Positions 9,884 to 23,805 of a stretch of DNA of 32,000 bases are shown one piece after another (the first letter of the stretch is position 1; each line of letters starts with the position of its first letter). The stretch covers positions 1,460,580 to 1,492,579 of the forward strand of contig NZ_PRDL01000001.1 of NCBI RefSeq assembly GCF_015182315.1, in the 5' to 3' direction. A program made the position numbers and the translations under genes. The notes under the pieces are model-generated. The model saw only the letters and a program-made list of their open reading frames with translations. It searched no databases and was not told where the DNA came from. Source of the DNA: Cellvibrio polysaccharolyticus. GTDB taxonomy: Bacteria > Pseudomonadota > Gammaproteobacteria > Pseudomonadales > Cellvibrionaceae.

Positions 9884-11149
9884 ATGCCAGCGAACAAACG
9901 GATTCTGATTGTCGAAGACAGCGAAATGGTCTCGAAAATATTACGTCATTTGATGTTGCATCAACCCGGTTTTGATGCGGTTTTCGCCTATTCTCTCGCT
10001 GAAGCCCGCGCCTTTTGTGAAGCGGCAGAAACGCCTTTCTTCGCCGCACTGGTTGACCTCAATTTGCCCGATGCGCCCCAGGGCGAAATTGTTGATTATG
10101 TATTAGGGCAGAAAATTCCCACCATTGTTCTCACCGGCAGCTACGACGAAAAGCGCCGCGAACAATTGTTCAATAAAGGTATCGTCGATTACGTTACCAA
10201 AGAGGGTCGCTACGCCTACGCCAAGGCGGTGGGCATGCTCGAACGTCTGGTGAAAAACCAGTCGATACGTGTGCTGGTGGTGGATGATTCCGACCTTGCG
10301 CGCAAGCATTTGGCCAATTTGTTGCGCCGCCATTTATTCCCTGTAGAAGAAGCTTCGGATGCAAAAGAAGCGATTGGTATTTTGTTGGCCAACAATGACA
10401 TTCGCCTGTTGGTGACGGATTACAACATGCCCGGTATGGATGGCTTTGAGCTGGTCAGAAATCTGCGCTATCAGTACGAAAAAAATGATTTGATCATGAT
10501 TGGTATTTCCGGAGACAGTAATGAAGCGCTGTCGGCCAAGTTTATCAAGCATGGCGCCAATGATTTTCTGCGCAAACCCTTTCACCCGGAAGAATTCTAT
10601 TGCCGGATTACCCACAACGTTGAATCATTGGAAATGATGGAGCGCATCGCATCAACGGCGCAGCGCGATCATTTAACCGGTCTTTTTCACCGCTACCATT
10701 TCTTCAATGTGGCTCGGGAAAAACACCGCATCGCCCGCGAGCAACAATCGCCGCTCACGGCAGTAGCTTTGGATATTGATAATTTCAGTGAGATTAACCG
10801 CGTGTACGGCAATGATTGCGGTGATGCGTTGTTGCAGTCATTTGCGCAATTACTGGAGCAATTTCTCGGCCGCTTTCTTCTCGCGCGCGCCGATGGTGAT
10901 GCCTTTTATGCGTTATTTCCCGGGGTGGGGCGCGATAAAACGATCGCATTGATCTCCGGTATCAAACAGCGCATGCAGCAGGAACCTTTTATTTTTGATG
11001 ATAAAGCAATCGCCTTTACCTTCAGTGTCGGGGTTACTGACCAACTGTTGCAAGGTGTAGAAGCTCAAATGAGCCGTGCGGTTACTTTGTCCGAGTATGC
11101 GCTCGACGCTGGCGGCGATATGACCGTGGACGACGAATCAGAGAATTGA
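9884..11149 (+). CDS. Response regulator, REC-REC-GGDEF architecture (PleD-like) with degenerate GGDEF motif
   Basis: Two receiver domains (ILIVEDS...VDLNLPD...; VLVVDDS...VTDYNMPGMDG...LRKPF). The C-terminal GGDEF-like domain (DHLTGL..., LDIDNFSEIN) has ADGDAF in place of GGDEF (10892-10906 encode DGDAF). I prefer the second ATG (9884), 6 nt after AGGAGA. Confidence 0.8.
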   Translation: MPANKRILIVEDSEMVSKILRHLMLHQPGFDAVFAYSLAEARAFCEAAETPFFAALVDLNLPDAPQGEIVDYVLGQKIPTIVLTGSYDEKRREQLFNKGIVDYVTKEGRYAYAKAVGMLERLVKNQSIRVLVVDDSDLARKHLANLLRRHLFPVEEASDAKEAIGILLANNDIRLLVTDYNMPGMDGFELVRNLRYQYEKNDLIMIGISGDSNEALSAKFIKHGANDFLRKPFHPEEFYCRITHNVESLEMMERIASTAQRDHLTGLFHRYHFFNVAREKHRIAREQQSPLTAVALDIDNFSEINRVYGNDCGDALLQSFAQLLEQFLGRFLLARADGDAFYALFPGVGRDKTIALISGIKQRMQQEPFIFDDKAIAFTFSVGVTDQLLQGVEAQMSRAVTLSEYALDAGGDMTVDDESEN

Positions 11150-11899
11150 TGGCGTTGTGGCAGCGCCTTTTTGGTGGTGGTCCAGCCAGTAAAGGGTGCT
11201 GGCTGCCACCGCGACCGGCATCATAAAAATATTCAGCACCGGAACAATACTGCCCAAAATAATCAAACCGCCGAGACTGAAACTGCTCAATGGTTTTTGC
11301 CGCAACCTCGCTCGCATATCCTTAAAGGCAACCTGATGGTTGTCTGCACTGTAGTCGGTGTATTGAACGGTCATGCACCAGGCCGACCACAAGCTACTGA
11401 TCAACAAGCCGCCGAAACTGCCGATCAGGGGAATAAAAAATAACGCAATAATCGCAATAAAAATCAACACACCGCGGCTGATAAAATACCAGAGTTTGAC
11501 CAACTCCCGTTTGAAGGTGCGCACGATGAGGCTGGCAAGTGGTTCAGCGGGGGCGCTGTTGCCGGTTACGCGTTGTTCAATTTTTTCTGCCAGAAACCCG
11601 TAAAAGGGTGCTGCTATCAGGGTGGTTAACAGATTAAATGTATAACCGTAGACCAGCAGCGCAATCAATCCTGCGAACAACCAGAACAATAAAATCAACC
11701 AGGCTAACCAGTCGTTTTGCTCAACAGCGCTGCTGTAATAATCACTGAAGGTATTAACCGCCCAGGTGGTAAGCAAAATAAAAACAACCAGGTTGATCAG
11801 TAACGGGATAATGACGAAGCGTTTTAACCCCGGTTGTAGCAAGAGCTTTGCGCCGGAAACAAGGTACTGGAATACTTTCGCTGGATTATCCTGAAACAT
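11138..11899 (-). CDS. cysZ: Sulfate transporter CysZ
   Basis: 253 aa, colinear with E. coli CysZ as I recall it (GxKLLxQPGxxRFVIxPLLxN..., APFxGxLAEKxE, QYxDYxxDNH, NxFxMPVAV). The 3' end overlaps the convergent response-regulator gene by 12 nt. Confidence 0.85.
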   Translation of the reverse strand: MFQDNPAKVFQYLVSGAKLLLQPGLKRFVIIPLLINLVVFILLTTWAVNTFSDYYSSAVEQNDWLAWLILLFWLFAGLIALLVYGYTFNLLTTLIAAPFYGFLAEKIEQRVTGNSAPAEPLASLIVRTFKRELVKLWYFISRGVLIFIAIIALFFIPLIGSFGGLLISSLWSAWCMTVQYTDYSADNHQVAFKDMRARLRQKPLSSFSLGGLIILGSIVPVLNIFMMPVAVAASTLYWLDHHQKGAATTPSIL

Positions 11900-12083: not shown

Positions 12084-13082
12084 TCAATTCACATCAAAAC
12101 GGAAGCGGCCATCAACCACTTGCGGCGCCTGGCGGCGGTCACTGCCTGGCAGTTCAGCAACAAAAATACCGTCAATATAATCAATGCGCTTGTCGGCCAG
12201 TAACTCAATCGTGGTTAATTGAATGCGGCATTGACCACCGTTCGCGGATGAATATTTATCGCTGCCGACAACCTCAAGAGTGATGTGCGTAGTGGCGTTA
12301 CAAGGGTAATCCACATTGGTCTGCAAATTATTGGTGTCAATAACAAGGGTCCAGCTGTCGCCTGACTGGTTGTTGCCGTTAAAAAACAAACCACGTTCAT
12401 CAGCATACACGGAGGTTTCCGTGGGTGTGTGATAAAGCAAAAACAGCTGGTTATTTAACGTTCCGGCAATACCGTTATTGATTAAGGTATTGGGATTTTG
12501 TACCCAGCCTGGCAGCGACGCCCGGCTTGTCAGGTTTACACCGGTGCGGTTCCCGCGTTGAACATATTCGATATCCCGCACACTGCCATCGGCCCGGGTG
12601 AATAAAATAACGGATGCAAGGGGATGCTCTGCGCGCGGTTGTATGATCAGCTTGCCGGGTTCCCGGGTAATGGTGTCAATGCTGTCTGCAATTAGTGACA
12701 ACCCGGTATTCTGTGCAAATTGAATGTCGCCATTCGGTGAAATTATCAGTTGTGACCAGTCAATTGAATCGCCCTGGTATTGCGCTGCGGGCGTGTAAGA
12801 ACCTTGAAGGCAACCAATTTGAGACGCGCCAGTGGTATTTTCACAATCGTTTGCAGATGAACTTGAGGCGCTACTGACAACAGATGAACTGCTGAACAAA
12901 CTACTGCTGGAACTGGAACTGGAACTGGAACTGGAACTGGAACTGGAACTGGAACTGGAACTGGAGGCAGGCGCCGGTATTGATGATTGATTGTTGCTGC
13001 CACCACCGCTACCGCCGCCGCAAGCGGTGAGCAGCAGTGTTGCTAATACCAATGTTGCAGAACCCGAAGAAGAGAAAGACAT
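12084..13082 (-). CDS. Lipoprotein of unknown function with polyserine tether (operon gene 8)
   Basis: Lipobox LLTAC at the N-terminus, GGGSGGGS then about 40 residues that are nearly all Ser. A 250-aa C-terminal domain has 4 Cys and no motif I recognise. The start is 2 nt after the upstream stop. Confidence 0.75.
   Translation of the reverse strand: MSFSSSGSATLVLATLLLTACGGGSGGGSNNQSSIPAPASSSSSSSSSSSSSSSSSSSSSSLFSSSSVVSSASSSSANDCENTTGASQIGCLQGSYTPAAQYQGDSIDWSQLIISPNGDIQFAQNTGLSLIADSIDTITREPGKLIIQPRAEHPLASVILFTRADGSVRDIEYVQRGNRTGVNLTSRASLPGWVQNPNTLINNGIAGTLNNQLFLLYHTPTETSVYADERGLFFNGNNQSGDSWTLVIDTNNLQTNVDYPCNATTHITLEVVGSDKYSSANGGQCRIQLTTIELLADKRIDYIDGIFVAELPGSDRRQAPQVVDGRFRFDVN
12908..12965. 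repeat. Perfect hexanucleotide microsatellite (TGGAAC)x9.7, coding (AGT-TCC = Ser-Ser on the minus strand)
   Basis: Counted directly: 9 perfect TGGAAC units (12908-12961) plus TGGA. It lies inside the polyserine tract of the 12084-13082 gene. Confidence 0.95.
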
Positions 13083-13084
13083 AA

Positions 13085-14347
13085 TCAGTTACCGTTAAGC
13101 GATGAAAGTGATTGAGTAAAAGGCGTCCAGGCAAAGTGAGTGGCTACCGCTTCGTCGTAGGCCTGTTGCAAAAGTAATAAGGTCGTGCTGTCGAGTTTGT
13201 CGGCTTGCGCCAGCACGGATAAAAAAGTGCGCTCGTAATGTTCGCGAGGTTTTACCAGAACCTGAATTTCAATCCGGTCATCGGCGTTTGGCTGTGCCGG
13301 TAATAACCCCTTGATAAATCGCGTTTCACCGGCAGCAATACGGGTATCAAAACTTTCTTCCTGCAGTGATACATCCACTTGCCAGCCGATCACATCTTCC
13401 GACAATTTTTGCCGGTGGCCGGTACGGCTTACCAGCCAGAGTTCGATGTAAACCTTGGGCACCATGTAAGTCGGAAAGTGATGCCCGGCCCCGCTATTGG
13501 TAATTGCAGCCGTCACCTGGTTTTCATCGCGACTTACCTTGAATGAAAGCGCTGTGCGCACCATGTCGGGCGAATGGATGCCTTGCCATTGATGTTTGCG
13601 ATCCGGCATATGGCAAGACTGGCAATGTTGTTGCTGCGACGGATATTGGCTGGCCTGCCATTGTGTCAAAGTGTCTTCGCGCAATTTACCGGCAGTACGC
13701 GGGCCATCTTCCGGAAACTGATGGCAAGTCGCACAAAAACGGCTGTCTTCAAATGCTGCTGAAACGGTAAAGCCGTTGTGGAGCAGGTTGCTGTCGGGCA
13801 ACTCGTTACGCGGTTGCGGGCCAAAGCGTTGATGTTCCCGCACATGGCAAGCGGCGCATACCAGCCCCTCGTGGCCTAATTGCGGCGGTACATAAGCCGG
13901 TGGTGACGAAGCCGGCGCATTGGGCCACTGGTGTTCTATGGCCAGTAAGGCTTTTTGTTCTGCCAGGGGGGCGTGACAGTTTAAACAGCCGTTGGCTTGC
14001 TCCTGTGGCATTAACCGTAATTGCCATAGAATCCCCGGCCCCATGGTCTGGCTGTGCAAACTGTTTTTCCAGTCGGCGTATTGTTCTGTATGGCAAGCAC
14101 CGCACACTTGCGGCGCGAGGGAGGCTTCAATCTCTGAAAAATGTGCTGGCGGGTTTCCTTGCGGTGGTAAAGGATGGTGCCAATGCTTTTGCAAAAACTG
14201 ATCGACCGCATCACCAATGGGTGGCAGTGGTGCCGGGTGGTTAAGCGAAGGTGCCACAGGGGCGGGTGCCGGTTTTTGTACCAGCACTGCACCTGCCGCG
14301 ATAGCGCCAATAATAATTAGCACACTGATGACCAGACCTGTTTTCAA
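13085..14347 (-). CDS. Membrane-anchored pentahaem c-type cytochrome (operon gene 7)
   Basis: Five CxxCH motifs (CGACH, CLNCH, CAACH, CATCH, CQSCH). N-terminal hydrophobic anchor MKTGLVISVLIIIGAIAAGAVLV followed by a Pro-rich segment. The last 150 aa or so are haem-free. TTG start is 2 nt after the TusA-like stop. Confidence 0.85.
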   Translation of the reverse strand: MKTGLVISVLIIIGAIAAGAVLVQKPAPAPVAPSLNHPAPLPPIGDAVDQFLQKHWHHPLPPQGNPPAHFSEIEASLAPQVCGACHTEQYADWKNSLHSQTMGPGILWQLRLMPQEQANGCLNCHAPLAEQKALLAIEHQWPNAPASSPPAYVPPQLGHEGLVCAACHVREHQRFGPQPRNELPDSNLLHNGFTVSAAFEDSRFCATCHQFPEDGPRTAGKLREDTLTQWQASQYPSQQQHCQSCHMPDRKHQWQGIHSPDMVRTALSFKVSRDENQVTAAITNSGAGHHFPTYMVPKVYIELWLVSRTGHRQKLSEDVIGWQVDVSLQEESFDTRIAAGETRFIKGLLPAQPNADDRIEIQVLVKPREHYERTFLSVLAQADKLDSTTLLLLQQAYDEAVATHFAWTPFTQSLSSLNGN

Positions 14348-14349
14348 TA

Positions 14350-14619
14350 TCAGGCCCGGCGTATTTTCCAGGTGAAAGTACCGCCGTCTTCCTGACGATC
14401 CAACAGCGTGTCGCCGTTAGCGGTGCACAGGTAAGTAATCGATTCCCCGGAAGACGGGTTATCAAAAACCAGTGTCAGTTCGTTGCCGCTGGTCAGCTTT
14501 TTCAAGGCTTTTTCTGCATAAATTTGCACATGCGGACAACCGTAACCTTTTACGTCCAGCAACCAGTTGTTATCGGATTGTTGTTCAAATTTGACCGTTT
14601 CTTTCAGTTTAATTGCCAT
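14350..14619 (-). CDS. TusA/YeeD/SirA-family sulfur-carrier protein (operon gene 6)
   Basis: 89 aa. LDVKGYGCPHV (conserved Cys-Pro, Cys28), then LTLVFDNPSS...YLC, matching the TusA fold pattern. Directly downstream of a YeeE-family gene, as in the E. coli yeeE-yeeD pair. Confidence 0.8.
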   Translation of the reverse strand: MAIKLKETVKFEQQSDNNWLLDVKGYGCPHVQIYAEKALKKLTSGNELTLVFDNPSSGESITYLCTANGDTLLDRQEDGGTFTWKIRRA

Positions 14620-14641
14620 AATTGTTTACCACTTTTTAAAC

Positions 14642-16084
14642 TCAAAAATCAAAACCGCTGCGAGCCAGGCGCCAGTCAATCCAGGCTTTGATGCCTTTTA
14701 CCGCAATATAGCCACCCACAATCATGCCTGCCAGGAAAATCCAGCCGCTGATATCACCGTTGGTGACGGTGGCAAAAAAGGCGCCGATATTACAGCCCAT
14801 GCCAATGCGTGAACCTATCCCCATCAGTGCGCCACCCACCAGTGCCAATATTACGGTTTCGTTGTTGGGCCATTTCCATTTAAATTCGCCGGTGATATTG
14901 GCCAGGATAGCGGCGCCCAGAATAATACCGATAGACATCATCCCCGGTGCGTTTAACAACGGATTGGGTAAGCCGTTGTCGAGGCCAAAGAAAATGTTGT
15001 CCATCATTTCAACACCGAGCAATTGTAAAAACCAGCCGCCCCATTGTGCTTCCTGGGTGGTGATGTACCAGTAACCCGGGTCAAAAACGCTGTCCTGAAT
15101 CGAAAGCCCGTCCAGGTAATCCATCTGCGCCAGTAATTCACCGAAGTTGAAAATATTGTAGTGATCGCGCAATTCACCGGTCACAAGCATCTGCAAACCG
15201 GCAAAAATACCCAGCCCCAAACCGGCGATTGCGGTGTTGCGCGATTGGGTAAACATGGACCATACGCCGCGTAATTCATAACCCAAACCGCTTTCATTGG
15301 TGCGGTTACGGATATAAATTTTGCGGTAATTGAAGGTGTACAGCAGCAGCAAAATAACCAGCGCCGGTAAAATCGCCACTACCAGCGCATTACCAAAAAG
15401 ATAGCTCCAGAGATTGGCTGGCAGTGCGAAAAAATCTACCAGCGTAGTGCCGCTTAATTCCCACAAATAACCCGCAGTAAACTGGTCAAACCAGCCATCG
15501 GTTACGCTCAGCTCTTCCGGCATTTGCGCCTGAGCGGCGGTTTCTGTCCAGCTCGCGGGTACCAGATGGTTCAACCAGCCACCGGCGCTGGCAAGCCACG
15601 CCTGCGAAAAAGAAATGGAGAACAACACCAGTACTGACCCCAGATTACCTTCGCCGGTTTTATACAGCGAACTGGAGGCGCAGCCACCTGCAAACACCAT
15701 CCCCAAACCAAACAGCAAACCGCCAATAATGATATGCCAGCCAAGCGGATGCGCATGGAAAGTATTAAAACCGGCTTGCTGAATCAGTGCAGAAATAATG
15801 GCGTAAAGTATTACCGCAATGAGTACGCCTACCGCCATGCGCGGCACACCCACCGCAAACAGATCCCGCACCGCGGACGCCATACAAAAGCGACCGTATT
15901 GTAAAAATACGCCATAGATGACACCAAACCAGGTGTAAACCAGCAAATAAACGAAGCGCTGATCTATCGAAAGATAAATCAGCGAGGTAATCACAACCAG
16001 CGTTGCAATTACCGCAGCAATTAAAAATCCCCGGCGACGGGAGGGGTGTTTGGTCGCCGGGTTAATAGCAGCCTGAGCGGGCAT
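14642..16084 (-). CDS. YeeE/YedE-family sulfur-compound (thiosulfate-type) transporter, enlarged form (operon gene 5)
   Basis: 480-aa polytopic membrane protein carrying the three Cys motifs characteristic of YeeE (GRFCMASA Cys67, AGGCASSS Cys135, GMGCNIGA Cys431). AAAGG SD lies 8 nt upstream. Confidence 0.8.
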   Translation of the reverse strand: MPAQAAINPATKHPSRRRGFLIAAVIATLVVITSLIYLSIDQRFVYLLVYTWFGVIYGVFLQYGRFCMASAVRDLFAVGVPRMAVGVLIAVILYAIISALIQQAGFNTFHAHPLGWHIIIGGLLFGLGMVFAGGCASSSLYKTGEGNLGSVLVLFSISFSQAWLASAGGWLNHLVPASWTETAAQAQMPEELSVTDGWFDQFTAGYLWELSGTTLVDFFALPANLWSYLFGNALVVAILPALVILLLLYTFNYRKIYIRNRTNESGLGYELRGVWSMFTQSRNTAIAGLGLGIFAGLQMLVTGELRDHYNIFNFGELLAQMDYLDGLSIQDSVFDPGYWYITTQEAQWGGWFLQLLGVEMMDNIFFGLDNGLPNPLLNAPGMMSIGIILGAAILANITGEFKWKWPNNETVILALVGGALMGIGSRIGMGCNIGAFFATVTNGDISGWIFLAGMIVGGYIAVKGIKAWIDWRLARSGFDF

Positions 16085-16100
16085 TGGACAAACCTTTCAA

Positions 16101-17270
16101 TTACAAAATGAACTGGAGACCCAGGGTCGTTTGATAATTATCTTGCAGTACCGGTGTAGACGGATGCGGGTTGGCATAGTCGTATTCGCGGTGTTCAAGG
16201 GTAATTTTCAAACTCTGTCCGTTGATGTAATAGTTGGCACCAAAGGCGTTAACGCGGCGATCCAGTAATCCGCCGGGCAGCTGGTATTCAGAGCCATCGT
16301 GGCGGGCGAAAAACTGCAAACGACCAGGGCCGACCGGGTTGGGTAACAAGTAACCGGCTTTTACGTAAAAGCCTTCCAGCTCGGTGGTGGTGGGCAGCAG
16401 CGGGTCAGGGGATTTGTTGATCGCGTTACCCAGACCATAATCGAAATATGCGGCCGACAAGGTGTAGGTACCACTTTTAAAGGGGTACTCAAAAAACGCA
16501 TCGGCGGTCCAGGCTTTGTAATCCTGAATGCCGGTTTTTTGATCGTAATCATCATAGGCCGCATCGGCCTGGAAATCGTAAGCAACACCAAAGGTGAGAA
16601 TTTTACGAGTACCCAGATACGTGCCGCGATAACCGTAATCGTATTCCGGATCCAATGCGCTCCAGTGCAAACGGGTCGTCACGCGGGGTGATTTTTTCGG
16701 TACTACCTCGCCTTCACGGCCATCGGCAACCAATACCCGGTATTGGAATGCTGCATCGCTCAGGTTGCCCCAAATGGCGAGGCCGGTATCACGCGAGCCG
16801 GCAAAGGGGGTGTAAGAGGCATCGCCACGATCCAGTGATAAGGGCTCAAGACAGGCTTCGAGATTTTCACGGGAAAAGGTATTTTTAAAACGGCCAACAA
16901 TGAAACGCAGTTCATCGGTGTAATCCAGTGTTATATAAGCATCGCGGTAATAAATTTCGCGATCGTCATTACCGGCCTTGCTGTCGTTACCGGATTCCAG
17001 CTGTGCATAAAAACCGATGTAATCATTGTACTGGCCACTGAAGGTAAGCCGGTTGCGACGCAAATAAACGTCGGTGCTGGAACCATCATGCGTGGCGGAT
17101 GTGTAACTGCTGTTGGTTGCCCAGACTTGCAGTGCGTAGTTAATTTGCAGAGAGCTGTTTTCACCGAACTCAATAATCGGGCCCGCTTGACTTACAGCAG
17201 GTAACACCGCTGCCGCCGCCAAACCGGCCAGCAAGGAACGGCGAAATGAACGTGTATGTTTTTTTTTCAC
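16101..17270 (-). CDS. Outer-membrane beta-barrel / porin-like protein (operon gene 4)
   Basis: GTG 17270 gives the signal peptide VKKKHTRSFRRSLLAGLAAAAVLPAVSQA|GP. Alternating amphipathic strands rich in Y/F/G, an LRRNRLTFSG motif reminiscent of OprO/P-type porins, and an aromatic-rich C-terminus (LGLQFIL). The ORF-track ATG 17336 would overlap the upstream gene by 53 nt. Confidence 0.7.
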   Translation of the reverse strand: MKKKHTRSFRRSLLAGLAAAAVLPAVSQAGPIIEFGENSSLQINYALQVWATNSSYTSATHDGSSTDVYLRRNRLTFSGQYNDYIGFYAQLESGNDSKAGNDDREIYYRDAYITLDYTDELRFIVGRFKNTFSRENLEACLEPLSLDRGDASYTPFAGSRDTGLAIWGNLSDAAFQYRVLVADGREGEVVPKKSPRVTTRLHWSALDPEYDYGYRGTYLGTRKILTFGVAYDFQADAAYDDYDQKTGIQDYKAWTADAFFEYPFKSGTYTLSAAYFDYGLGNAINKSPDPLLPTTTELEGFYVKAGYLLPNPVGPGRLQFFARHDGSEYQLPGGLLDRRVNAFGANYYINGQSLKITLEHREYDYANPHPSTPVLQDNYQTTLGLQFIL

Positions 17271-17283
17271 TTGAAAAATACCT

Positions 17284-17856
17284 TTATTCCAGATGTTCGA
17301 ATAAACGTGGGCTGATAGTGCGCCACGTATCGGCAAGATCTTTTACTTCGCCGGCGGCGTGACAACTGCCACAGGTTTTCTCCGGCACGGTTAATGGGTT
17401 AACCACGAGATTTTTGTGAGCAATTTCCTGCTTGAGAATGCGCGGGTTACCCTGGTGACAACCGGTACAGGAATAATTCACCTTGGCGTGTTGGTGGTGC
17501 CAGGGTGCGATATCCGGCGTGCTCTCGGGCAGCGCAGCACGTTTGCCGTTGTGGCAACGAAAGCAGCTGGAGGCACCCAGGCCGCAAGCATTGGCCAGCG
17601 CTACCGGCGAAAATTGTTGCGCCTGGCTTTTTACGATATCAATGGCTTCAACGCCCCACCCGCTGTGTGCTGCGACCAGTTCATTCACCGCGTCGGACGC
17701 GGCTGTATCCGGTTGCGTGGTCGCTTGCAATAACAGCGAGCTGATGCCGATAACCGAGGTGACGGTAACCACCGCCAACCAGCCGGTTGCACTGATCAAT
17801 GTCAGCTTGCCGGCATTTTTAAGATGTCGGTTTAAAATGTTAATAAGTGCTTTCAC
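17284..17856 (-). CDS. Membrane-anchored trihaem c-type cytochrome (operon gene 3)
   Basis: Three CxxCH motifs (CFRCH, CTGCH, CGSCH). A long N-terminal hydrophobic segment LTLISATGWLAVVTVTSVIGISSLLL. GTG start with a TAAGG SD that overlaps the upstream stop codon. Confidence 0.8.
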   Translation of the reverse strand: MKALINILNRHLKNAGKLTLISATGWLAVVTVTSVIGISSLLLQATTQPDTAASDAVNELVAAHSGWGVEAIDIVKSQAQQFSPVALANACGLGASSCFRCHNGKRAALPESTPDIAPWHHQHAKVNYSCTGCHQGNPRILKQEIAHKNLVVNPLTVPEKTCGSCHAAGEVKDLADTWRTISPRLFEHLE

Positions 17857-17867
17857 GGTTATATGCC

Positions 17868-18170
17868 TTAATTTTTTTGCAGAGCTTCAAGTTTTTTTGA
17901 ATTGCGTTTCTGGCTCGCCATGATGTCGTTTTCAGTCAGGCCGTCTGCGCACATGCACACCGGACCGTCGCGAAAACGCAAGCGACTGCCTTTTTTCTTC
18001 GCTGGCTGATCGTCTGCTTTTTCTGCGTCCTGCTGTACCGGTTGTGCTTGTGCAGTTGTCGATGACGCAGCGTTTTCTGTTTCTGCAAAAACAGGGGCAG
18101 CCAATCCAAAAAACAGTACAACCGACATCAAACGAAGAGAGAAACACATCGTGAATGGTGGGTGATACAT
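17868..18170 (-). CDS. Small secreted protein with CMC motif (operon gene 2)
   Basis: GGAGG lies 5 nt before ATG 18170. Signal peptide ...LMSVVLFFGLAAPVFA|ETE. The roughly 70-aa mature part is charged and probably disordered, with a single PVCMCADG motif. No homology recognised. Confidence 0.6.
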   Translation of the reverse strand: MYHPPFTMCFSLRLMSVVLFFGLAAPVFAETENAASSTTAQAQPVQQDAEKADDQPAKKKGSRLRFRDGPVCMCADGLTENDIMASQKRNSKKLEALQKN

Positions 18171-18188
18171 ACTTGCCTCCGTAGCGAA

Positions 18189-18208
18189 GAGGGTGACGAA
18201 GCACCCTC
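18189..18208 (-). other. Intercistronic 7-bp GC hairpin between operon genes 1 and 2
   Basis: gagggtg-N6-caccctc seen directly in the 47-nt spacer. No U-run follows on the minus strand, so it is more likely an mRNA stability/processing element or attenuator than a terminator. Confidence 0.4.
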
Positions 18209-18217
18209 CGTTAACGA

Positions 18218-19771
18218 TTAACCGCCGCAGGGGTTAGGTGGCAGAACCACGCCGCCGCCATTACCGGCACTGCTGCTACTGCTACTGCTACTGGAGCCGC
18301 CGCCATTACCGGTATCCGGTGTGGTGGCTGGCGTGATGTAGGCTTTGTCTTCCGCAATAATGGCGTTGGTGTTATCGCCGTAGGGGTCAATAATACGCGG
18401 TGCGGTGTTGGTGAAATCTGCACCACGCGCGTTGATCAGCTCCGGCTTGTTGGGGAAGTAAGGGCCTGAGAGTTCATCGGTTCTCCAGGGCGAGTCAGCG
18501 GGCAAAACGGGGTTGCCATTTTTATCGAGCGCACCACCGGTCAGTGAATTCCACTCAATCATTGCCGCATCGTACAAACGGGTTGGCAGGCCGAGAATCA
18601 CCGCACTGGCTACCTGGGAAACCGCAGCGCGAGCAGAGGTTTCACACCACAAATACACCAGGTCGCCATTTTGATAGGCGTTGCCAAAACCGAGACGCTG
18701 GTAGGTGCCGTCAACAAAGCCACGGCCAAAGGCGTCGGCACCACCGGTGATGTAATTGCGCAAATCTGCTTTGCTCTTGTACAGGCCGGTTGAGGTGTCA
18801 ATCAGGTTGGTCCAGTTCAACTGCACCGAACCACGTGGATGGCCCTGACGGCTGCCACCATTCTGGAAGCTGCTGTAGCGTTGTTCCTGAGTCAGGGTTT
18901 GCCCCGATTCGGTAGCTTCGCCAGCGCTGTACTGATCCAGGCTACGGCCATCCCACAGGAATACGCCGTCCTGAGTGTCGTTTTCATCGCGCAGTGGCAG
19001 CACGTTAATAACGTCTTCCAGCGTGGCTTGCAGAACGGTGTTATCCACTAACAGATCGCGAATGCTGGAAACCTGCTTGTTGATAATCGGGCTTGGCTGT
19101 ACCGCAACCGCACTGGAGAAAGGTTGTGCGGTAAAGTCAGCGGCTGTCCAGTTGCTGCCAAGGTGATTGTTGCCACCGTTCAGTACCGCGAGATTTTTTT
19201 GATCAACGCCCCAGTAACGGAAGGTGTACCAGCAGCGACCCTGATCCATCGCGGCGTTGCCGCCGGTGCCTTGGGCACAAACAATCAAATCGTTTTTAAC
19301 ATCAATGCCGTAACGACGAATCAACTTATCGGTCGTGGGGCCGGAGATAACAATGCCGGCAATTTCGGTTACGCCATTAACGCGCGGTTCTCTCCAGTTA
19401 CTTTCCAGATAAGTGAAAACCTTTTTGTTATCCGGTTTGATAAATTCATAACCGACCGGCCCACGGGTTGCCTGAATAATAACCAGCTTGCCGGTGATGC
19501 CGGCCGGGCGTTGGTTTTCCCAATCGTTAATCCAGCGCTTGAGCGTGGCACCGGTAACAAGGCCATTGACGTTATCGTCGTAGTTTTCTGCCGATTCCTG
19601 CGCGATATCCGCCGGTGTATTTACCAGCAAGGTGGGCTTTGGCTCAGGTGTAACCACCGGTGTGGTGTCTTTACTGCGTTCACCGCCACAACCGATTACT
19701 GACAGGCTCAAAGCAATGGCCAATAAGGTGGCCGATTTGCCGGGGCCGTTTTTTCCAATCAAATTTTTCAT
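18218..19771 (-). CDS. Lipoprotein with tandem rhodanese-like domains and a C-terminal Ser/Gly linker ending -PCGG (operon gene 1)
   Basis: Lipobox SVIGC. Domain 1 ends with the classic inactive-rhodanese pattern RCWYTFRYWGVDQKNLAVLNGG. Domain 2 has GHPRGSVQLNW, the active-site-like loop YLWCETSARAA and ...YDAAMIEWN. The tail is TGNGGGSSSSSSSSSAGNGGGVVLPPNPCGG-stop. Confidence 0.75.
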   Translation of the reverse strand: MKNLIGKNGPGKSATLLAIALSLSVIGCGGERSKDTTPVVTPEPKPTLLVNTPADIAQESAENYDDNVNGLVTGATLKRWINDWENQRPAGITGKLVIIQATRGPVGYEFIKPDNKKVFTYLESNWREPRVNGVTEIAGIVISGPTTDKLIRRYGIDVKNDLIVCAQGTGGNAAMDQGRCWYTFRYWGVDQKNLAVLNGGNNHLGSNWTAADFTAQPFSSAVAVQPSPIINKQVSSIRDLLVDNTVLQATLEDVINVLPLRDENDTQDGVFLWDGRSLDQYSAGEATESGQTLTQEQRYSSFQNGGSRQGHPRGSVQLNWTNLIDTSTGLYKSKADLRNYITGGADAFGRGFVDGTYQRLGFGNAYQNGDLVYLWCETSARAAVSQVASAVILGLPTRLYDAAMIEWNSLTGGALDKNGNPVLPADSPWRTDELSGPYFPNKPELINARGADFTNTAPRIIDPYGDNTNAIIAEDKAYITPATTPDTGNGGGSSSSSSSSSAGNGGGVVLPPNPCGG

Positions 19772-20042
19772 CGTGTGTGTGTTTTCCTGTTACGAATGTC
19801 TTGATGGTATGAGGAGAGCCGTAATAGAACTGCAAGCCATTCGGAGAGGGCGTTGAGCTATAAGGGTGATGTATTACGGTTGCCAATCTGACGTTTTACG
19901 GAATGAGGGGTGTTGCGGATTTTCCTTCTCTCTGCAAAAGGCGTTAATAGCTTTTGCAACTCACTCGCTCGTATTTCAACTGCATCGTTCCTGTTTTTTG
20001 TCATCGTCCTGATTTTTGTGCAGGTGTCAGTGAGCAGGTTTT

Positions 20043-20058
20043 TGCAGCATCTGTGCCA
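20043..20058 (-). promoter_or_regulatory. Sigma-54 (-24/-12) promoter for the eight-gene operon
   Basis: The minus strand reads TGGCAC-AGATG-CTGCA, against the consensus TGGCAC-N5-TTGCW. GG (20057/20056) and GC (20045/20044) have the canonical spacing. A sigma-54 activator gene is divergent. It lies about 270 nt upstream of the first ATG. Confidence 0.6.
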
Positions 20059-20111
20059 GAAAAGTTTTTTGTGAGCGAATGCACGGTTTTTAAAGCATAT
20101 TACGCGACTTG

Positions 20112-20127
20112 AAGAAAATATTTTCTT
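20112..20127. promoter_or_regulatory. 16-bp AT-rich perfect palindrome AAGAAAATATTTTCTT (candidate bending/IHF-type site)
   Basis: Perfect palindrome seen directly, 54-69 nt upstream of the -24 element, between the promoter and the GCAGCA palindromes. It does not match the IHF consensus well. Confidence 0.3.
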
Positions 20128-20156
20128 TCAGAAAAAAATCATAATGTGTTGAATAA

Positions 20157-20173
20157 GCAGCATGAGTTGCTGC
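20157..20173. promoter_or_regulatory. Inverted repeat GCAGCA-N5-TGCTGC (candidate enhancer/UAS for the sigma-54 activator)
   Basis: Perfect 6-bp arms, about 100-115 nt upstream of the -24 element. The TGCAGC/GCTGCA half-site recurs at 20224-20231 and 20268-20275. Confidence 0.35.
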
Positions 20174-20185
20174 CTGGTGGTCAGT

Positions 20186-20201
20186 TGTTGATTAATCAAC
20201 A
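20186..20201. promoter_or_regulatory. 16-bp perfect palindrome TGTTGATTAATCAACA
   Basis: Seen directly in the divergent intergenic region. Binding protein unknown. Confidence 0.3.
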
Positions 20202-20223
20202 TACCTCTTGCTGAATAATAAAC

Positions 20224-20275
20224 AATGCAGCTATAAGCTAATAACCCGAAGTTAATTACCTTCGGTTGCTGCATT
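20224..20275. promoter_or_regulatory. Nested inverted repeats AATGCAGC...GCTGCATT enclosing CCGAAG-N8-CTTCGG
   Basis: 8-bp outer arms (20224-20231 / 20268-20275) and 6-bp inner arms (20246-20251 / 20260-20265), seen directly. Could be a second UAS or the operator/leader of the activator gene. Confidence 0.3.
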
Positions 20276-20419
20276 TGATATATTGCATGTAGACGCAGTC
20301 AGTGAAAGATATTTTCTATCTTCACCAAAGCACTGTTCGGTGAACAAGCAGTTTGATTTTCAAACGCATTCACTCCCTTCCGGAACGGAGTCCCTGATAC
20401 TGACTTTATCGAGCTCACC

Positions 20420-21526
20420 TTGCCACTGCTTACCAACCCTGATGATAAATCTGTCGATGCCAGAACGCTGGTTCGCGAACGCGCTACCGCGTTGGTGTTT
20501 GAAGACCCAACCTCCTGTGAGTTGCTGGCCCGCATAGAGCGACTTGCGCCCAGCGAAGCCAGTGTATTAATTACCGGCGAAACTGGCACCGGTAAAGAAT
20601 TGGTGGCGAGGCATGTGCATCAATTAAGCCGCCGATCGCAGCGCCCCTTTGTGGCATTAAACTGCGGTGCGCTCACTGAATCCCTGATTGAAAGCGAGCT
20701 GTTTGGTTACGAAAAAGGCGCTTTTACCGGTGCCTTGACATCGCGCCCGGGCTGGTTTGAAGAAGCCCATGGCGGTACGCTGTTTTTGGACGAAATTGGT
20801 GATTTACCCTTTTCCATGCAAGTAAAATTATTGCGTGTGCTTCAGGAAAAAGAAGTGGTGCGGCTGGGGTCGCGGGTCAGCCATCCGGTGGATGTAAGAA
20901 TTATCGCGGCAACCAACATCAATTTATTTGACGCAGTCGCTGCCGGTCACTTTCGTGCAGACCTGTTCTACCGCATCAATGTTGCTACGCTCAATCTGTT
21001 GCCCTTGCGAAAACGTCGCGGCGATATTATGCCGCTGGCACGACATTTCGTGACGCAATATTGCAAACGACTGGGGCATAACAGCGCGCAGATCAGTGAA
21101 GCCGCAGAAACCGCCCTCATGGCTCACCTATGGCCTGGCAATATTCGTGAATTGGAAAATGTCATTCATTACGGCCTGCTGGTGTGCCGGCAGGGGCGTA
21201 TTCAGGCGGGTGATTTGCATCTGTCGCGCTTGCAGGTTCCTGCAGAAAATTCCATTGCCTTCGGTGCAACAGAAAGCCCTTCTATCGAATCCCGCATGGC
21301 GTCATTGCTGGCAGAATTGTTTGAAGAGCAGCGAACCGGTTTATACGATTCCCTTGAGGAAATGCTTGTAAAAACAGCCTGGCAATATTGTCATGGCAAC
21401 CAGAGCCGGGCGGCAAGATTGTTGGGTATCAGCCGCAATATCTTCCGCGCCCGTCTGGCGCGCGCCGGTGTTATTGGAGTTTCCGATTCGACCAGTGAAG
21501 AAGCCTGGTTACCCAATGCGCTTTAG
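20420..21526 (+). CDS. Sigma-54-dependent transcriptional activator (bEBP) lacking an N-terminal sensor/receiver domain
   Basis: AAA+ sigma-54 interaction domain (Walker [15 protein letters not shown], Walker [16 protein letters not shown]). C-terminal Fis-type HTH ([23 protein letters not shown]). Only about 45 aa precede Walker A. A stop lies 21 codons upstream in frame, and the only start is TTG 20420 (or TTG/GTG about 25 codons later). Confidence 0.85.
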
Positions 21527-21605
21527 TGACTCAACAAATAGCTTTGAATAGCCGTTGTTTAACTGGCTTTTATTGACACTATTATTTATTCAGGACAGAT
21601 GGATT

Positions 21606-22430
21606 ATGAGTCTTTTCCCTTTATTACTACAGCCGGCAGAGTTGGCTGGCCGTTTGAACGAACCGCGATTGCTGATTCTTGATGTAGGTAAAGAAGCTAT
21701 CTATCAACAAGCGCACCTGCCAGGCGCTATTTTTCTGGATTACCGGCGACTGCAAAAAGGCGTACCTCCAGCACCAGGTTTGTTGCCGGAGGCCGAAGCT
21801 ATTGCGCAATTATTTTCCGATATCGGCTTGCAGGCAGATACTCACGTAGTGGCTTATGACGATGAGGGCGGCACCCGCGCTGCGCGTTTATTGTGGTTGC
21901 TGGATGCCGCCGGGCATCAGCATTACAGTTGGTTGAACGGCGGTATTCACGCGTGGCTGGATGAAGATTTGCCGATCGAAACCGAAGCGGTTTATGCCAT
22001 CCCTTCGCAGGTTACTGCTGCCCAACTGGATTTGAAGCCACAAGTCGATCTTGAATATCTGCTGGCGCATTACCAGGATGAGAACCTGGTTATATGGGAT
22101 GCGCGCACGGCGGAAGAATTTGCCGGAAGCCGTGTGATGGCTGCGCGTGGCGGACACATTCCGGGGGCGGTCAATTATGATTGGTCGTTGTTAATTGATC
22201 CTGCGCGAAACAATCGTCTGCTGCCGCTGGAAACTATTCAGAAACAACTGTCGGCGTTGGGTATCGACTCATCAAAAACGGTAATCACCCACTGCCAGAC
22301 GCACCATCGCTCAAGTTTCAGTTGGCTGGCCGGAAAAATTCTCGGATTCAAACAAATTTTCGGCTATCCGGGTGCCTGGTCAGAGTGGGGTAATAACCCG
22401 GATACACCGGTAGCGGTAGGCAAGGATTGA
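21606..22430 (+). CDS. Cytoplasmic tandem-domain rhodanese (thiosulfate sulfurtransferase), RhdA-type active site
   Basis: Two rhodanese domains with the active-site loop HCQTHHRSS, identical to the CQTHHR loop of Azotobacter RhdA as I recall it. ATG 21606 is preferred over the TTG at 21555 (the added residues look non-native). Confidence 0.85.
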   Translation: MSLFPLLLQPAELAGRLNEPRLLILDVGKEAIYQQAHLPGAIFLDYRRLQKGVPPAPGLLPEAEAIAQLFSDIGLQADTHVVAYDDEGGTRAARLLWLLDAAGHQHYSWLNGGIHAWLDEDLPIETEAVYAIPSQVTAAQLDLKPQVDLEYLLAHYQDENLVIWDARTAEEFAGSRVMAARGGHIPGAVNYDWSLLIDPARNNRLLPLETIQKQLSALGIDSSKTVITHCQTHHRSSFSWLAGKILGFKQIFGYPGAWSEWGNNPDTPVAVGKD

Positions 22431-22431: not shown

Positions 22432-23013
22432 TCAGCGCACTTGCCGCTGTATCCACAGTAATATCAGCCCGGCAAAAGTACCTGCAACGGCGCCCCACAG
22501 GTGCGCGTCTACCGCCACGGGTACCGGTAGCAATGCGTGTTGCGGATCGAACCAGGGGGTGTGTTCGTAAATAACCTTGCCCCAAATCACCAGCAATGCC
22601 AGCGCATTAATGGTTGGAGTTTGTGGCAGGGTTAACAGCAACCCGGCAATAATCAGTCCGTGCAGGGTGCCTGACAGACCCGCATAAAAAAACAGCTCGG
22701 GATCAAAAAACCATAAGCCGATTCCGGTTACTGCAAGGCAGGTGATCAAGGTGGCCAGGTAATGTTTCACTGCAGCATCGCGCCACAGTGCGGCATTAAT
22801 GATGACCAGCGCCGCTGCATTCATCAGCAGATGATAAACCCCGTAATGAATGAACTGACTGGAGATCAATCGCCACCATTCGCCTTGGGCAATGGCATTG
22901 CGATCAAATTGTAGCAGGGGTTCGGTAATGGTTTGGAAGAGCCCGGCGAGAGCGAGCAGGGCGACCAGCAGGAGCGTCAGAATATCCATCCGGTTTAAAG
23001 TAAAAGCTGGCAT
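22432..23013 (-). CDS. Rhomboid-family intramembrane serine protease, rhombosortase-like
   Basis: 193 aa, 6 TM-like segments. Motifs: EWWRLISSQFIHYGVYHLLMN, catalytic-Ser YAGLSGTLHG, catalytic-His DAHLWGAVAG. The size and YxGLSGxLHG pattern resemble rhombosortases rather than GlpG. Confidence 0.7.
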   Translation of the reverse strand: MPAFTLNRMDILTLLLVALLALAGLFQTITEPLLQFDRNAIAQGEWWRLISSQFIHYGVYHLLMNAAALVIINAALWRDAAVKHYLATLITCLAVTGIGLWFFDPELFFYAGLSGTLHGLIIAGLLLTLPQTPTINALALLVIWGKVIYEHTPWFDPQHALLPVPVAVDAHLWGAVAGTFAGLILLWIQRQVR

Positions 23014-23129
23014 GGAACATCCTGAATTTTTGTGGTCCGACTTGAAGTTTTATCAGATTTAAAATTAATCACAGTTTATTGAGAAACTCCCCTGTTTTTT
23101 CGAGGCTGTACGGTAAGCGCCTTCTGTCC

Positions 23130-23218
23130 GTTTGCCATCAGGATGTTTGTTCCAAAACCGCATTATGCCGGTAGGGGGGCAGCAGTCTGAGATTAAAAAT
23201 CAATCAGTGGTTTATGCA
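23130..23218 (+). repeat. Degenerate copy 3 of the long-hairpin repeat (left arm + partial core, no right arm)
   Basis: 23130-23157 matches the copy-4 left arm at 21/28 (gtttgCcatcagg...ttccaaaa). It is followed by ccg..., a gcagcagtctgag segment resembling core gcggcagtcgagc, and a tttatgca end motif. No complementary right arm was found. Confidence 0.45.
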
Positions 23219-23277
23219 AAGAGTTGCAGGGATTGCCACAGAAGGAACTGATTGATCTTGCTGGCTGCACCGTTCGA

Positions 23278-23383
23278 GTTTGTCATCAGGTGCCTTGCTC
23301 CAAAACCGTCGAGTCAGGGATGACTCGTCGGAGCTACAGGGATGTATTTATGCATTTTTGGAGCAAGGCACCTGATGACAAAC
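23278..23383 (+). repeat. Structured long-hairpin repeat, copy 4 (perfect 28-bp inverted arms + 50-nt core)
   Basis: Arms 23278-23305 and 23356-23383 are perfect reverse complements. The core is CCGTC-[gagtca GGGA tgactc]-GTCGGAGC-[taca GGGA tgta]-TTTATGCA, the same architecture as copy 1 with different but still complementary stems. Confidence 0.85.
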
Positions 23384-23475
23384 GTACAGATGGCACCTGC
23401 TAAATATTCGGAAAAAACAAGCGAAGTTGTAAACAATCCGCATGCCGAATCGACAGATTGTTTATTCGAGGCAGG

Positions 23476-23775: not shown

Positions 23776-23805
23776 GGATAACCGGTTCCTGTTTCTGTAG
23801 TAGCA

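Follow-up and report, generated by a model that had tools for sequence, protein, structure and literature searches.

How does zero-valent sulfur in insoluble or polymeric form cross the outer membrane of a bacterium, and how is it then delivered to the cytoplasmic machinery that oxidises or assimilates it? Both questions are open, with sulfur import having been called poorly understood in the work on SoxT (PMC11582611), and both are raised by a gene cluster of Cellvibrio polysaccharolyticus in which one operon holds candidates for capture, outer-membrane passage, periplasmic redox chemistry, import and cytoplasmic hand-off. The cluster lies in a stretch of 32,000 nucleotides of contig NZ_PRDL01000001.1 (positions 1,460,580 to 1,492,579), which as a whole is called the window here and in whose numbering the coordinates are given. 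Its eight minus-strand open reading frames (ORFs), from 19771 down to 12084, are numbered g1 to g8 in operon order and are predicted to encode a rhodanese lipoprotein (g1), a small secreted protein (g2), a trihaem cytochrome (g3), a porin (g4), a YeeE-type transporter (g5), a TusA-like carrier (g6), a pentahaem cytochrome (g7) and a second lipoprotein (g8).

The reading that is put forward here, and to which we give an even chance, is that of a sigma-54-controlled, envelope-spanning pathway that acquires sulfane (zero-valent) sulfur, as S0 or polysulfide, for the cytoplasm. A preliminary description of the same sequence had proposed a module for the capture, redox processing and import of sulfur that matched no characterised pathway. 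The first part of that proposal survives comparative genomics, as the core of the module is conserved, with its function still predicted from sequence. The second part needs revision because of matches to the NCBIfam families ExtH, ExtI and ExtKL, and there is also a relation to the YeeE-TusA-DsrEFH type II (YTD) sulfur relay; what stands of it is that the combination is undescribed and that g7 is without the key residues of its characterised relative MccSep.

Operon structure and conservation

The eight ORFs are as tightly packed as was first described, with gaps from g1 to g8 of 47, 11, 13, 16, 22, 2 and 2 nt when the porin is started at GTG 17270. As these gaps are small, no terminator-like site was found within them and the core is conserved as a unit, the reading of a single operon holds.

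Conservation was followed from g7, for which there are at least 1586 homologues in a protein collection and at least 556 confirmed matches in a collection with one genome per species. At the loci of the best 80 of these at least 556 matches all ORFs were translated and then searched with the window proteins, with counts out of 57 referring to the loci that have enough flanking DNA. Genes for g3, g4, g5 and g6 were each found in 57 of the 57, g1 in 55 and a sigma-54 activator in 46, whilst in 44 loci the trihaem gene is immediately preceded by an ORF with the motif of g2. The seven-gene core g1 to g7 stays together in nearly all of the loci examined, from Beta- as well as Gammaproteobacteria, and the gene neighbourhoods, on which the preliminary description had left the extent of conservation to be settled, show a widely distributed set, carried by hundreds of proteobacteria, both sulfur oxidisers and heterotrophs. 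Only the locus of a Bacteroidota metagenome-assembled genome (MAG) has a g7 homologue with no partner genes (L045, 9300-11107); its contig, a short one, is possibly contamination from binning.

Two gene orders recur. Type A, that of the window, runs g1-g2-g3-g4-g5-g6-g7 and usually has a divergent cytoplasmic rhodanese (11 loci), and type B runs g5-g6-small ORFs-g1-g7-g2-g3-g4-histidine kinase-sigma-54 response regulator (44 loci). The closest syntenic relative of the window is L001, a contig from a JGI metagenome. Hydrocarboniphaga has the seven genes alone as a stand-alone operon, and in Thiohalomonas denitrificans (L004) three small genes follow that of TusA, the first of which is DsrE-like (Pfam DsrE, 24.8 bits with a cut-off of 22.7).

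Sulfur oxidisers dominate the carriers of the g7 locus. Amongst the best 80 are the gammaproteobacterial sulfur bacteria Ectothiorhodospira, Alkalilimnicola, Thiohalomonas, Thiohalobacter, Thioalkalivibrio, Thiogranum, Sulfuricaulis and Ca. Thiodiazotropha, and in the Betaproteobacteria many Thiobacillus and other Hydrogenophilales, Sulfuricellaceae, Sideroxydans, Gallionella and Rubrivivax. Heterotrophs and MAGs are represented by Cellvibrio, Cellvibrionaceae, Solimonas and a Moraxellaceae MAG.

Lipoprotein, secreted protein and porin

The first gene, g1 (18218..19771, minus strand), encodes 517 aa that from NCBIfam, AlphaFold 2 (AF2) and Foldseek appear to form an outer-membrane-type lipoprotein of tandem rhodanese fold that resembles ExtH. 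It has no Pfam match, and the two rhodanese-like domains that had been read from the letters, and that Pfam missed, are borne out by the AF2 model, which matches the tandem rhodaneses CysA3, bovine rhodanese, SseA and YnjE (Foldseek E of about 1e-8, target template modelling (TM) score of about 0.7). The model has a predicted local distance difference test score (pLDDT) of 82.4 and a predicted TM score of 0.81, with the tail at 485-517 below 50. The NCBIfam model NF040901 for ExtH gives 91.2 bits (E 7e-26), which is under its cut-off of 200, in an alignment that covers nearly the whole model (positions 14-416 of 430).

Three cysteines of g1 are conserved at 97-99% across 72 homologues. Cys28 (97%) is that of the lipobox and is followed by Gly, and Cys376 (99%) opens the active-site loop C376-E-T-S-A-R, which is C-E-T-x-x-R in the family. 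The third, Cys515, sits at the end of a disordered Gly/Ser tail of residues 485-517, the C-terminus reading ...L-P-x-N-P-C-G-G-COOH in 58 of 70 loci and ending in close variants in most others. This NPCGG arm resembles the carrier arm of SoxY, a resemblance that would be one of mechanism only, and the analogy suggests that it could be a source of the thiol that g7 lacks. The terminal Cys arm does not appear in the preliminary description; its codons lie at 18218-18320, and in the window the linker is poly-Ser.

The second gene, g2 (17868..18170, minus strand, 100 aa), has no match in Pfam or NCBIfam. It was first described as a secreted CxC protein and this is upheld by a signal peptide and by a C-x-C that is 100% conserved, within the invariant motif R-L-[KR]-[FY]-[RK]-x-G-P-x-C-x-C-x-x-G-[LM]-x-E-x-[DE]-I.

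The fourth gene, g4 (16101..17270, minus strand, 389 aa), is predicted to encode an outer-membrane porin of the ExtI family. Its porin-like character, which had already been noticed, is seen in Pfam (Porin_O_P, 7e-10), and the NCBIfam model NF040900 porin_ExtI gives 328.5 bits, above the equivalog cut-off of 150, with residues 38-408 (in the numbering of the search) aligned to positions 12-400 of 403. The start is most likely GTG 17270 and not the ORF maximum at 17336; an AAGG Shine-Dalgarno sequence for this start shares bases with the TAA that ends the trihaem gene.

The cytochromes

The motifs of the two cytochromes, three CxxCH in g3 and five in g7, are as first counted and are invariant across homologues. 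The trihaem protein g3 (17284..17856, minus strand, 190 aa) is assigned to the c7 type by Pfam (Cytochrome_C7, 7.6e-8) and has an N-terminal hydrophobic segment that is either an anchor or a signal sequence. Across 79 sequences the three CxxCH, an extra Cys91 (C-x6-C-x2-C-H) and three distal His are invariant, and the ExtM and ExtS models of NCBIfam match g3 only weakly, under their cut-offs.

The pentahaem protein g7 (13085..14347, minus strand, 420 aa) is placed in the PHC/MccSep superfamily by profile search, Foldseek and NCBIfam. It carries five invariant CxxCH and a haem cap, and its C-terminus forms a domain of Ig-like type. Pfam gives weak matches to multihaem families, and NF040886 ExtKL of NCBIfam gives 46.7 bits (E 2e-12), under its cut-off of 250. 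Against the chains of the PDB the single sequence finds MccSep (9wt8) as its best match, a weak one (E 0.005), and a profile of 20 homologues again finds 9wt8 best, now at E 1.7e-10, with 5ZE8 next (4e-8). The AF2 model of g7 has a mean pLDDT of 70.6, with the C-terminal beta-sandwich mostly at 83-97 and its residues 267-366 above 85, and its top Foldseek match, in a library older than the release of the MccSep structure, is 5ZE8 (E 3e-10, TM 0.45-0.48 over 408 columns). The nearest named relative of g7 belongs to an uncultured Cellvibrionaceae MAG (about 61% identity).

MccSep is the ExtKL of Geobacter sulfurreducens, which was shown in August 2026 to be a periplasmic pentahaem selenoprotein that acts on polysulfide as a reductase, whose synthesis S0 induces and without which there is no S0 respiration (PMC13510729). 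The MccSep family is defined by a conserved selenocysteine (Sec) or Cys, U325, together with the five haem motifs; Cys239 is the strictly conserved distal ligand of catalytic haem 2, and both Cys239 and U325 are essential (PMC13510729). In the g7 family the only conserved cysteines are the ten of the five CxxCH motifs (20 sequences). MccSep Sec325 faces M295 of g7 in the invariant stretch N-x-G-A-G-H-H-F-P-T-Y-M-V-P-K, where none of the 20 sequences has a Cys, and Cys239 aligns within K221-L-R-E-D-T226, where the confidence of the alignment is low but there is no Cys anywhere near. A gapless register on the conserved Trp would place the invariant Lys221 opposite Cys239, whilst R83 and K372 of MccSep fall outside the aligned regions. 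As judged from these alignments g7 is a distant homologue of MccSep that shares its fold and is not a member of the MccSep family, and as it is without Cys239 and Sec325 the chemistry of MccSep would not be available to it in cis.

Transporter and sulfur carrier

The fifth gene, g5 (14642..16084, minus strand, 480 aa), encodes a predicted inner-membrane sulfur transporter of the YeeE/YedE family (Pfam Sulf_transp PF04143, 166.8 bits, 1e-48). It aligns to YeeE/TsuA of Spirochaeta thermophila (PDB 6leo, 1e-22) over both halves and at all three of the Cys motifs that had been recognised earlier; all of 74 sequences have C67, C135 and C431, whose counterparts in TsuA are C22, C91 and C293. The central segment is about 215 aa in g5 and about 125 aa in TsuA, some 90 residues longer. 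The scores of g5 against the NCBIfam models are 154 bits for YedE/FdhT (cut-off 350), 111 and 91 for TsuA (cut-offs 400 and 645) and 56 for seleno_YedE (cut-off 200), and as it is thus under every TsuA and YedE cut-off it would represent a separate subfamily. Two conserved stretches that look extra-membrane and are absent from TsuA, G-W-F-D-x-F-T-A-G-Y and V-F-D-P-G-Y-W-Y-I-T-T-Q-E-A-Q, might be where partners from the periplasm or the cytoplasm dock.

The product of the sixth gene, g6 (14350..14619, minus strand, 89 aa), is a predicted cytoplasmic sulfur carrier similar to TusA, YeeD and YedF. Its TusA-like nature, first read from the letters GCPHV, is confirmed by Pfam (TusA, 8e-13, 48.4 bits with a cut-off of 28.6), and the best matches in the PDB are YedF 1je3 (2e-5) and TusA 1dcj (8.5e-5). 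The active-site Cys28 lies in G-Y-G-C-P-H, a loop that is G-Y-x-C-P-H in the family, and both C28 and C65 are invariant. Like g5 it is under every equivalog cut-off of NCBIfam (YedF, 34 with a cut-off of 79).

Regulation

A sigma-54 promoter of the -24/-12 type, TGGCACAGATGCTGCA (20043..20058, minus strand), precedes the first ATG by about 270 nt, and reads TGGCAC-N5-CTGCA with the GG-N10-GC spacing and one mismatch to the consensus. It had been called near-consensus from the start, and this is correct, yet taken alone the element is weak: a scan of the window at up to two mismatches gives 22 matches where 24.9 are expected from shuffled sequence, with three matches of one mismatch in the 32 kb. 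The element is credible because it is conserved in orthologous operons, which carry it upstream in L001 (TGGCACAAATACTGCT) and L005 (TGGCACAAAATCTGCT), and because such sites are enriched before the genes that lead operons. At up to two mismatches they were found upstream of g1 in 19 of 69 loci, of g5 in 12 of 66 and of g3 in 44 of 77, where the count is of sites before the g2-g3-g4 block, with the internal control genes g7, g4 and g6 having 3 of 81, 2 of 76 and 6 of 68. Transcription is predicted to begin near 20032; the leader that follows from this promoter is about 260 nt (19772-20042), those of L001 and L005 are about 210-330 nt, and no Rfam family was detected in the leader or elsewhere in the window.

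Some 90-170 bp upstream of the -24/-12 element are candidate upstream activating sequences (20147..20224, minus strand). They comprise a perfect 16-bp palindrome, TGTTGATTAATCAACA, at 20186-20201 and two copies with two mismatches at 20147-20162 and 20209-20224, and from their sequence and placement may be the binding sites of the activator. All three are of the form TGTTGA-N4-TCAACA, and L001 has a site of this form (4123-4138) about 75 bp upstream of its sigma-54 element; this locus carries no activator gene. These sites lend the -24/-12 element further support.

The divergent unit was first described as a sigma-54 activator and a CQTHHR rhodanese, and both identities stand. The activator, a predicted bacterial enhancer-binding protein (20420..21526, plus strand), has a Pfam Sigma54_activat domain (2.8e-70, residues 27-191) and HTH_8, so that it consists of an AAA+ domain and a helix-turn-helix (HTH) only, with no N-terminal sensor or receiver domain, as in PspF. 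The gene beside it encodes a cytoplasmic two-domain rhodanese (21555..22430, plus strand; Pfam Rhodanese, 1.4e-32, in two stretches) that, to judge from the orthologue in L013, probably starts at ATG 21606. That locus, from an Alkalilimnicola MAG (L013, 22-2016), has an activator orthologue of the same architecture with the same rhodanese partner, and a divergent rhodanese accompanies the operon in the window-type loci L001, L003, L005-L008, L013 and L025. It might be speculated that the rhodanese is a sensor or trans-acting regulator of the activator. In most relatives the cluster is flanked instead by a histidine kinase and a sigma-54 response regulator.

A possible route for sulfane sulfur

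The identities of the genes, their conserved cysteines and the co-location of the core are the observations from which we infer every step of the following scheme. The outer-membrane lipoprotein g1 would take sulfane sulfur from S0 or polysulfide onto Cys376 of its rhodanese, from where it would move to Cys515 of the NPCGG arm as a persulfide or polysulfide, with the ExtI-type porin g4 as the route across the outer membrane. In the periplasm g7, together with the anchored trihaem protein g3 and the CxC protein g2, would redox-process the bound sulfur chain, and as the two nucleophiles of MccSep, Cys and Sec, are missing from g7, a reactive thiol would probably be supplied in trans by the arm of g1 or by g2. 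The YeeE protein g5 may then pass the product through its three-Cys pore to the TusA protein g6, which would hand the sulfur to the cytoplasmic tandem rhodanese here and to a DsrE-like relay in most of the sulfur-oxidising relatives, and from either the sulfur would go on to assimilation or oxidation. Expression would be driven by the PspF-like activator, bound to the three palindromic sites upstream of the -24/-12 element.

Several lines of evidence are consistent with this scheme. By NCBIfam score g4 is an ExtI equivalog, with g1 ExtH-like and g7 ExtKL-like, and the best PDB match of the g7 profile, MccSep, is a polysulfide reductase induced by S0. The modelled tandem rhodanese fold of g1, with its invariant active-site Cys, would suit a carrier of sulfane sulfur, and the alignment of g5 to YeeE/TsuA points to a family whose SoxT members import it. 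Sulfur oxidisers are the dominant hosts, and the type B loci match the layout of the YTD relay.

There are also a number of points that weigh against the scheme. The most direct is that g7, from its alignment, lacks both residues that are essential in MccSep, so that polysulfide reductase activity cannot be transferred to it by homology. Neither a quinol dehydrogenase nor any other evident source or sink of electrons is encoded in the operon. Amongst the loci of Cellvibrio and Solimonas no upstream sigma-54 element was found, so that sigma-54 control seems to be common rather than universal, and the census, having been seeded on g7, tells of the companions of g7 and not the converse. To our knowledge the only YeeE/YeeD pair tested experimentally takes up thiosulfate. 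Cellvibrio, Solimonas, Hydrocarboniphaga and probably the organism of the window are presumably ordinary heterotrophs. Finally, the sole known phenotype of ExtI, that of extI in G. sulfurreducens, concerns selenite and tellurite (PMC5877670).

This last point leads to the handling of selenium or tellurium as an alternative, with entry through the ExtI porin, reduction by the cytochromes and then either import of the YedE/YedF type for selenophosphate or detoxification. The very name of the family in NCBIfam is 'selenite/tellurite reduction operon porin', g4 is above its cut-off, deletion of extI impairs the reduction of both oxyanions (PMC5877670), and MccSep itself reduces selenite (PMC13510729). 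Polysulfide is, however, the preferred substrate of MccSep, and g7 is without the Sec that is proposed to attack selenite. YedE/FdhT and YedF are indeed the best NCBIfam matches of g5 and g6, and YedF the best PDB match of g6, yet the scores are far under the cut-offs (154 as against 350 and 34 as against 79). Most relatives are sulfur oxidisers in which the module is joined to a DsrE-like relay (by Pfam, in Thiohalomonas), and selD, selA and selB were not noticed among the window ORFs examined, so selenium or tellurium is held to be quite unlikely as the purpose of the module. Acquisition of thiosulfate or tetrathionate for assimilation, where the cytochromes would reduce polythionate or the rhodanese would cleave thiosulfate and YeeE/TusA would import thiosulfate in the manner of E. 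coli YeeE/YeeD, is unlikely too, if less so. In its favour, g5 and g6 have homologues in YeeE/TsuA, a thiosulfate transporter of which there is a crystal structure, and in YeeD/TusA, but g5 is far under both of the NCBIfam TsuA cut-offs; g1 has the fold of thiosulfate sulfurtransferases, but a soluble anion has no obvious need of a dedicated lipoprotein with a carrier arm; and cysZ, a sulfate transporter gene, adjoins the cluster in the window, but is not conserved with the module. Many carriers are heterotrophs in which sulfur is needed for assimilation only. Set against this, neither thiosulfate nor tetrathionate is turned over by MccSep (PMC13510729), which of the characterised proteins is the one nearest to g7, and in the homologous relay of cable bacteria TusA and DsrEFH type II are not persulfidated by thiosulfate (PMC13293266).

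Two further ideas seem to us highly improbable. The porin encoded beside multihaem cytochromes could be part of a conduit that exchanges electrons with Fe, Mn or an electrode outside the cell, which is how ExtHIJKL was first seen, and Sideroxydans and Gallionella, which oxidise Fe(II), do have homologues, with ExtHIJKL partly aiding the reduction of Mn(IV) and Fe(III) oxides in Geobacter strains that keep only that cluster (PMC6148476). Such a wire would have no use for YeeE and TusA, which are present in 57 of 57 loci, and ExtKL is now known as a periplasmic sulfur enzyme (PMC13510729); moreover the operon has no extracellular cytochrome, its outer lipoprotein being a rhodanese, and eight haems in two small proteins are little with which to span an outer membrane. 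The other idea reverses the direction, with efflux of surplus cytoplasmic sulfane sulfur through TusA and YeeE, oxidation by the cytochromes and release through the porin as a means of sulfur export or detoxification. The gene content is symmetrical in this respect, and the rhodanese encoded with the activator could sense sulfane sulfur in the cytoplasm; sulfane-sulfur stress systems under sulfur-sensing regulators such as FisR do exist. An outer-membrane capture lipoprotein is hard to explain in an exporter, though, all of the characterised YeeE-family members mediate uptake (PMC11582611), and the relay from TusA to DsrEFH type II feeds oxidation inward (PMC13293266).

Within the acquisition of sulfane sulfur, which is therefore the reading that we retain, there is a more specific and more doubtful version in which the operon is a complete and as yet undescribed route for zero-valent sulfur. 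Here the arm of g1 would present the chain, in or near the ExtI porin, to g7, from which the sulfur would pass to YeeE and then TusA, and g7, its own nucleophiles lost, might work on a substrate bound to a protein thiol in trans. If this is true it would provide a long-sought mechanism for the mobilisation and import of insoluble or polymeric sulfur in many sulfur oxidisers and some heterotrophs, and would show haem catalysis acting in a new way, on a substrate bound to a carrier. The core is found in the culturable and genetically tractable Cellvibrio, Solimonas and Thiobacillus denitrificans, so that these ideas are directly testable. Whatever the outcome, automatic names such as 'selenite/tellurite reduction operon porin ExtI', 'SseA' and 'cytochrome c554' are unsafe for hundreds of proteobacterial genes.

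The accessory gene g8 and the chromosomal setting

The last gene of the operon, g8 (12084..13082, minus strand, 332 aa), encodes a predicted lipoprotein with a poly-Ser linker, a run of about 20 Ser after the lipobox, and matches no Pfam or NCBIfam family. The preliminary description of it as an orphan was near the mark, as it has very few relatives (9 clusters at E<1e-10 among 1.84 billion representative proteins, of which the representative P0241 is 100% identical to residues 128-332), but it does not belong to the conserved module, being present in 4 of the 57 well-flanked loci with weak matches in three others. It is an accessory gene outside the conserved core.

In the 184-nt spacer that follows g8 are two stem-loops on the minus strand (12072-12046 and 11983-11962), which probably mark the 3' end of the operon; because their T-tracts are weak, termination after g8 can only be presumed. 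Next comes cysZ (11138..11899, minus strand; Pfam EI24, 1.9e-41), which was rightly named and placed on the same strand in the preliminary description. With the spacer and its two hairpins in between it is probably a separate transcription unit; L001 has it on the opposite side of the cluster and is the only other locus with a detected copy, so it is a neighbour that lies outside the conserved module. The gene that converges on cysZ (9866-11149), the 3' ends overlapping by 12 nt, encodes a response regulator in which two receiver-like regions are combined with GGDEF, and the GGDEF gene also flanks the cluster in L001.

G+C is even across the region, which is flanked by gatB, gatA, mreB and maf on one side and by a DEAD-box helicase and the GGDEF response regulator on the other. 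Given the even G+C and the housekeeping flanks, an origin as a mobile island was rejected, with no hint of recent transfer. In the window gatB, gatA and mreB (22432-28548) adjoin the cluster, as does gatB, but only gatB, in L001, and in the distant relative Thiohalomonas denitrificans the cluster adjoins mreB-gatCAB (L004, 1-3816). The shared gatCAB/mreB neighbourhood hints at an old chromosomal position that has been vertically kept. Thiohalomonas also has ccmA-F, for cytochrome c maturation, directly after the cluster and its two-component regulator (L004, 16627-21212). Further away in the window (51-4456) are a branched-chain/urea-type ABC transporter (permease and two ATPases) and then a formamidase/acetamidase gene, and a formamidase gene is near the cluster in L001 as well.

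Comparison with known systems

The ExtH, ExtI, ExtJ and ExtKL proteins belong to a cluster of G. sulfurreducens that was first proposed to be an outer-membrane conduit (PMC6148476). The window shares with this cluster a tandem-rhodanese lipoprotein, a Porin_O_P-like ExtI porin and a pentahaem protein with haem cap and Ig stem, and also a secreted protein of about 100 aa (g2 here, ExtJ there), a likeness that is by description. The differences are that the gene order is another and that YeeE, TusA and the c7-type trihaem protein, absent from the Geobacter cluster as described (PMC5877670, PMC6148476), are added; that g1 and g7 score under the NCBIfam cut-offs for ExtH and ExtKL; and that g7, unlike ExtKL, has neither the haem-ligating Cys239 nor a Sec or Cys at 325. 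None of the other Ext families of NCBIfam that were tested on the window proteins is above its cut-off, and there are no Rieske, cytochrome b or large multihaem genes (ExtM-ExtS as in PMC5877670) among the eight. Control is by sigma-54 here and by LysR/TetR regulators in Geobacter (PMC6148476), and the hosts are aerobic or denitrifying Beta- and Gammaproteobacteria as opposed to Desulfuromonadales. ExtI homologues in Thiohalobacter and Thioalkalivibrio have already been listed, without being studied (PMC5877670), and how polysulfide gets through the outer membrane is stated to be unknown in the work on MccSep (PMC13510729).

The inner half of the module is related to the YTD cluster, whose in vitro sulfur relay runs from TusA to DsrC (PMC13293266), and to the YeeE-like SoxT proteins that import sulfane sulfur (PMC11582611). 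As in YTD, SoxT and TsuA-TsuB, a three-Cys transporter of the YeeE family comes directly before a TusA-like carrier, and the type B relatives have small ORFs after TusA in the manner of the YTD layout, the first being DsrE-like in Thiohalomonas (PMC13293266). The YTD and SoxT literature cited here describes no porin, rhodanese lipoprotein or cytochromes as companions of a YTD cluster. In contrast to YTD the window operon has no DsrE-like gene, with g7 starting 2 nt after g6, and its place is taken by the divergent cytoplasmic rhodanese. At the level of the transporter, g5 is about 130-150 aa longer than the TsuA and SoxT proteins.

SoxY, of the SoxYZ pair in the Sox system for thiosulfate oxidation, ends in the motif GGCGG, and g1 likewise has a flexible C-terminal peptide that ends with a Gly-flanked Cys. 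The Cys of the SoxY arm holds the intermediates of the pathway covalently and presents them to the partner enzymes (PMC5336275). Unlike SoxY, g1 is a 517-aa rhodanese lipoprotein without the SoxY fold, so that the relation is analogy and not membership, and no genes for SoxZ, SoxAX or SoxB were seen among the window ORFs examined.

In Wolinella succinogenes the periplasmic, rhodanese-like Sud transfers polysulfide sulfur and feeds the polysulfide reductase Psr. The logic of a rhodanese-type carrier that delivers polysulfide sulfur to a periplasmic reductase may be the same here, but Psr is a molybdoenzyme with a quinol-oxidising membrane subunit whereas the window has a haem protein and no quinol module, and beyond the rhodanese fold the two are not related in sequence. 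With regard to regulation, a sigma-54 two-component system is known from a sulfur oxidiser in TspS/TspR of Acidithiobacillus. The activator of the window is instead similar to PspF in having an AAA+ domain, a C-terminal HTH and no sensory domain, and differs in having no PspA-like partner but a co-transcribed rhodanese gene. The best structural match of g7, c552 of Thermochromatium tepidum (PDB 5ZE8), is only 18% identical in sequence, and we know of no function for it. The PHC family, proposed for cable bacteria, groups c552 with ExtKL and Gsu2801 (PMC11976967). A conduit of the Mtr/Pcc type, in which a porin is joined by a periplasmic cytochrome of 8 or more haems and a multihaem lipoprotein on the outer surface, differs from what was found, namely cytochromes of three and five haems and a lipoprotein with no haem motif.

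What was known already is the family of each part, ExtH/ExtI/ExtKL in Geobacter and YeeE-TusA(-DsrEFH) in several phyla. Full-text literature searches found no description of this gene combination, an absence that is not in itself proof. What is new is that both of these sub-assemblies, with the trihaem and the CxC protein, occur as one module in Beta- and Gammaproteobacteria, that the MccSep fold exists in a large clade without the Cys and Sec and their chemistry, and that a rhodanese lipoprotein carries an arm like that of SoxY.

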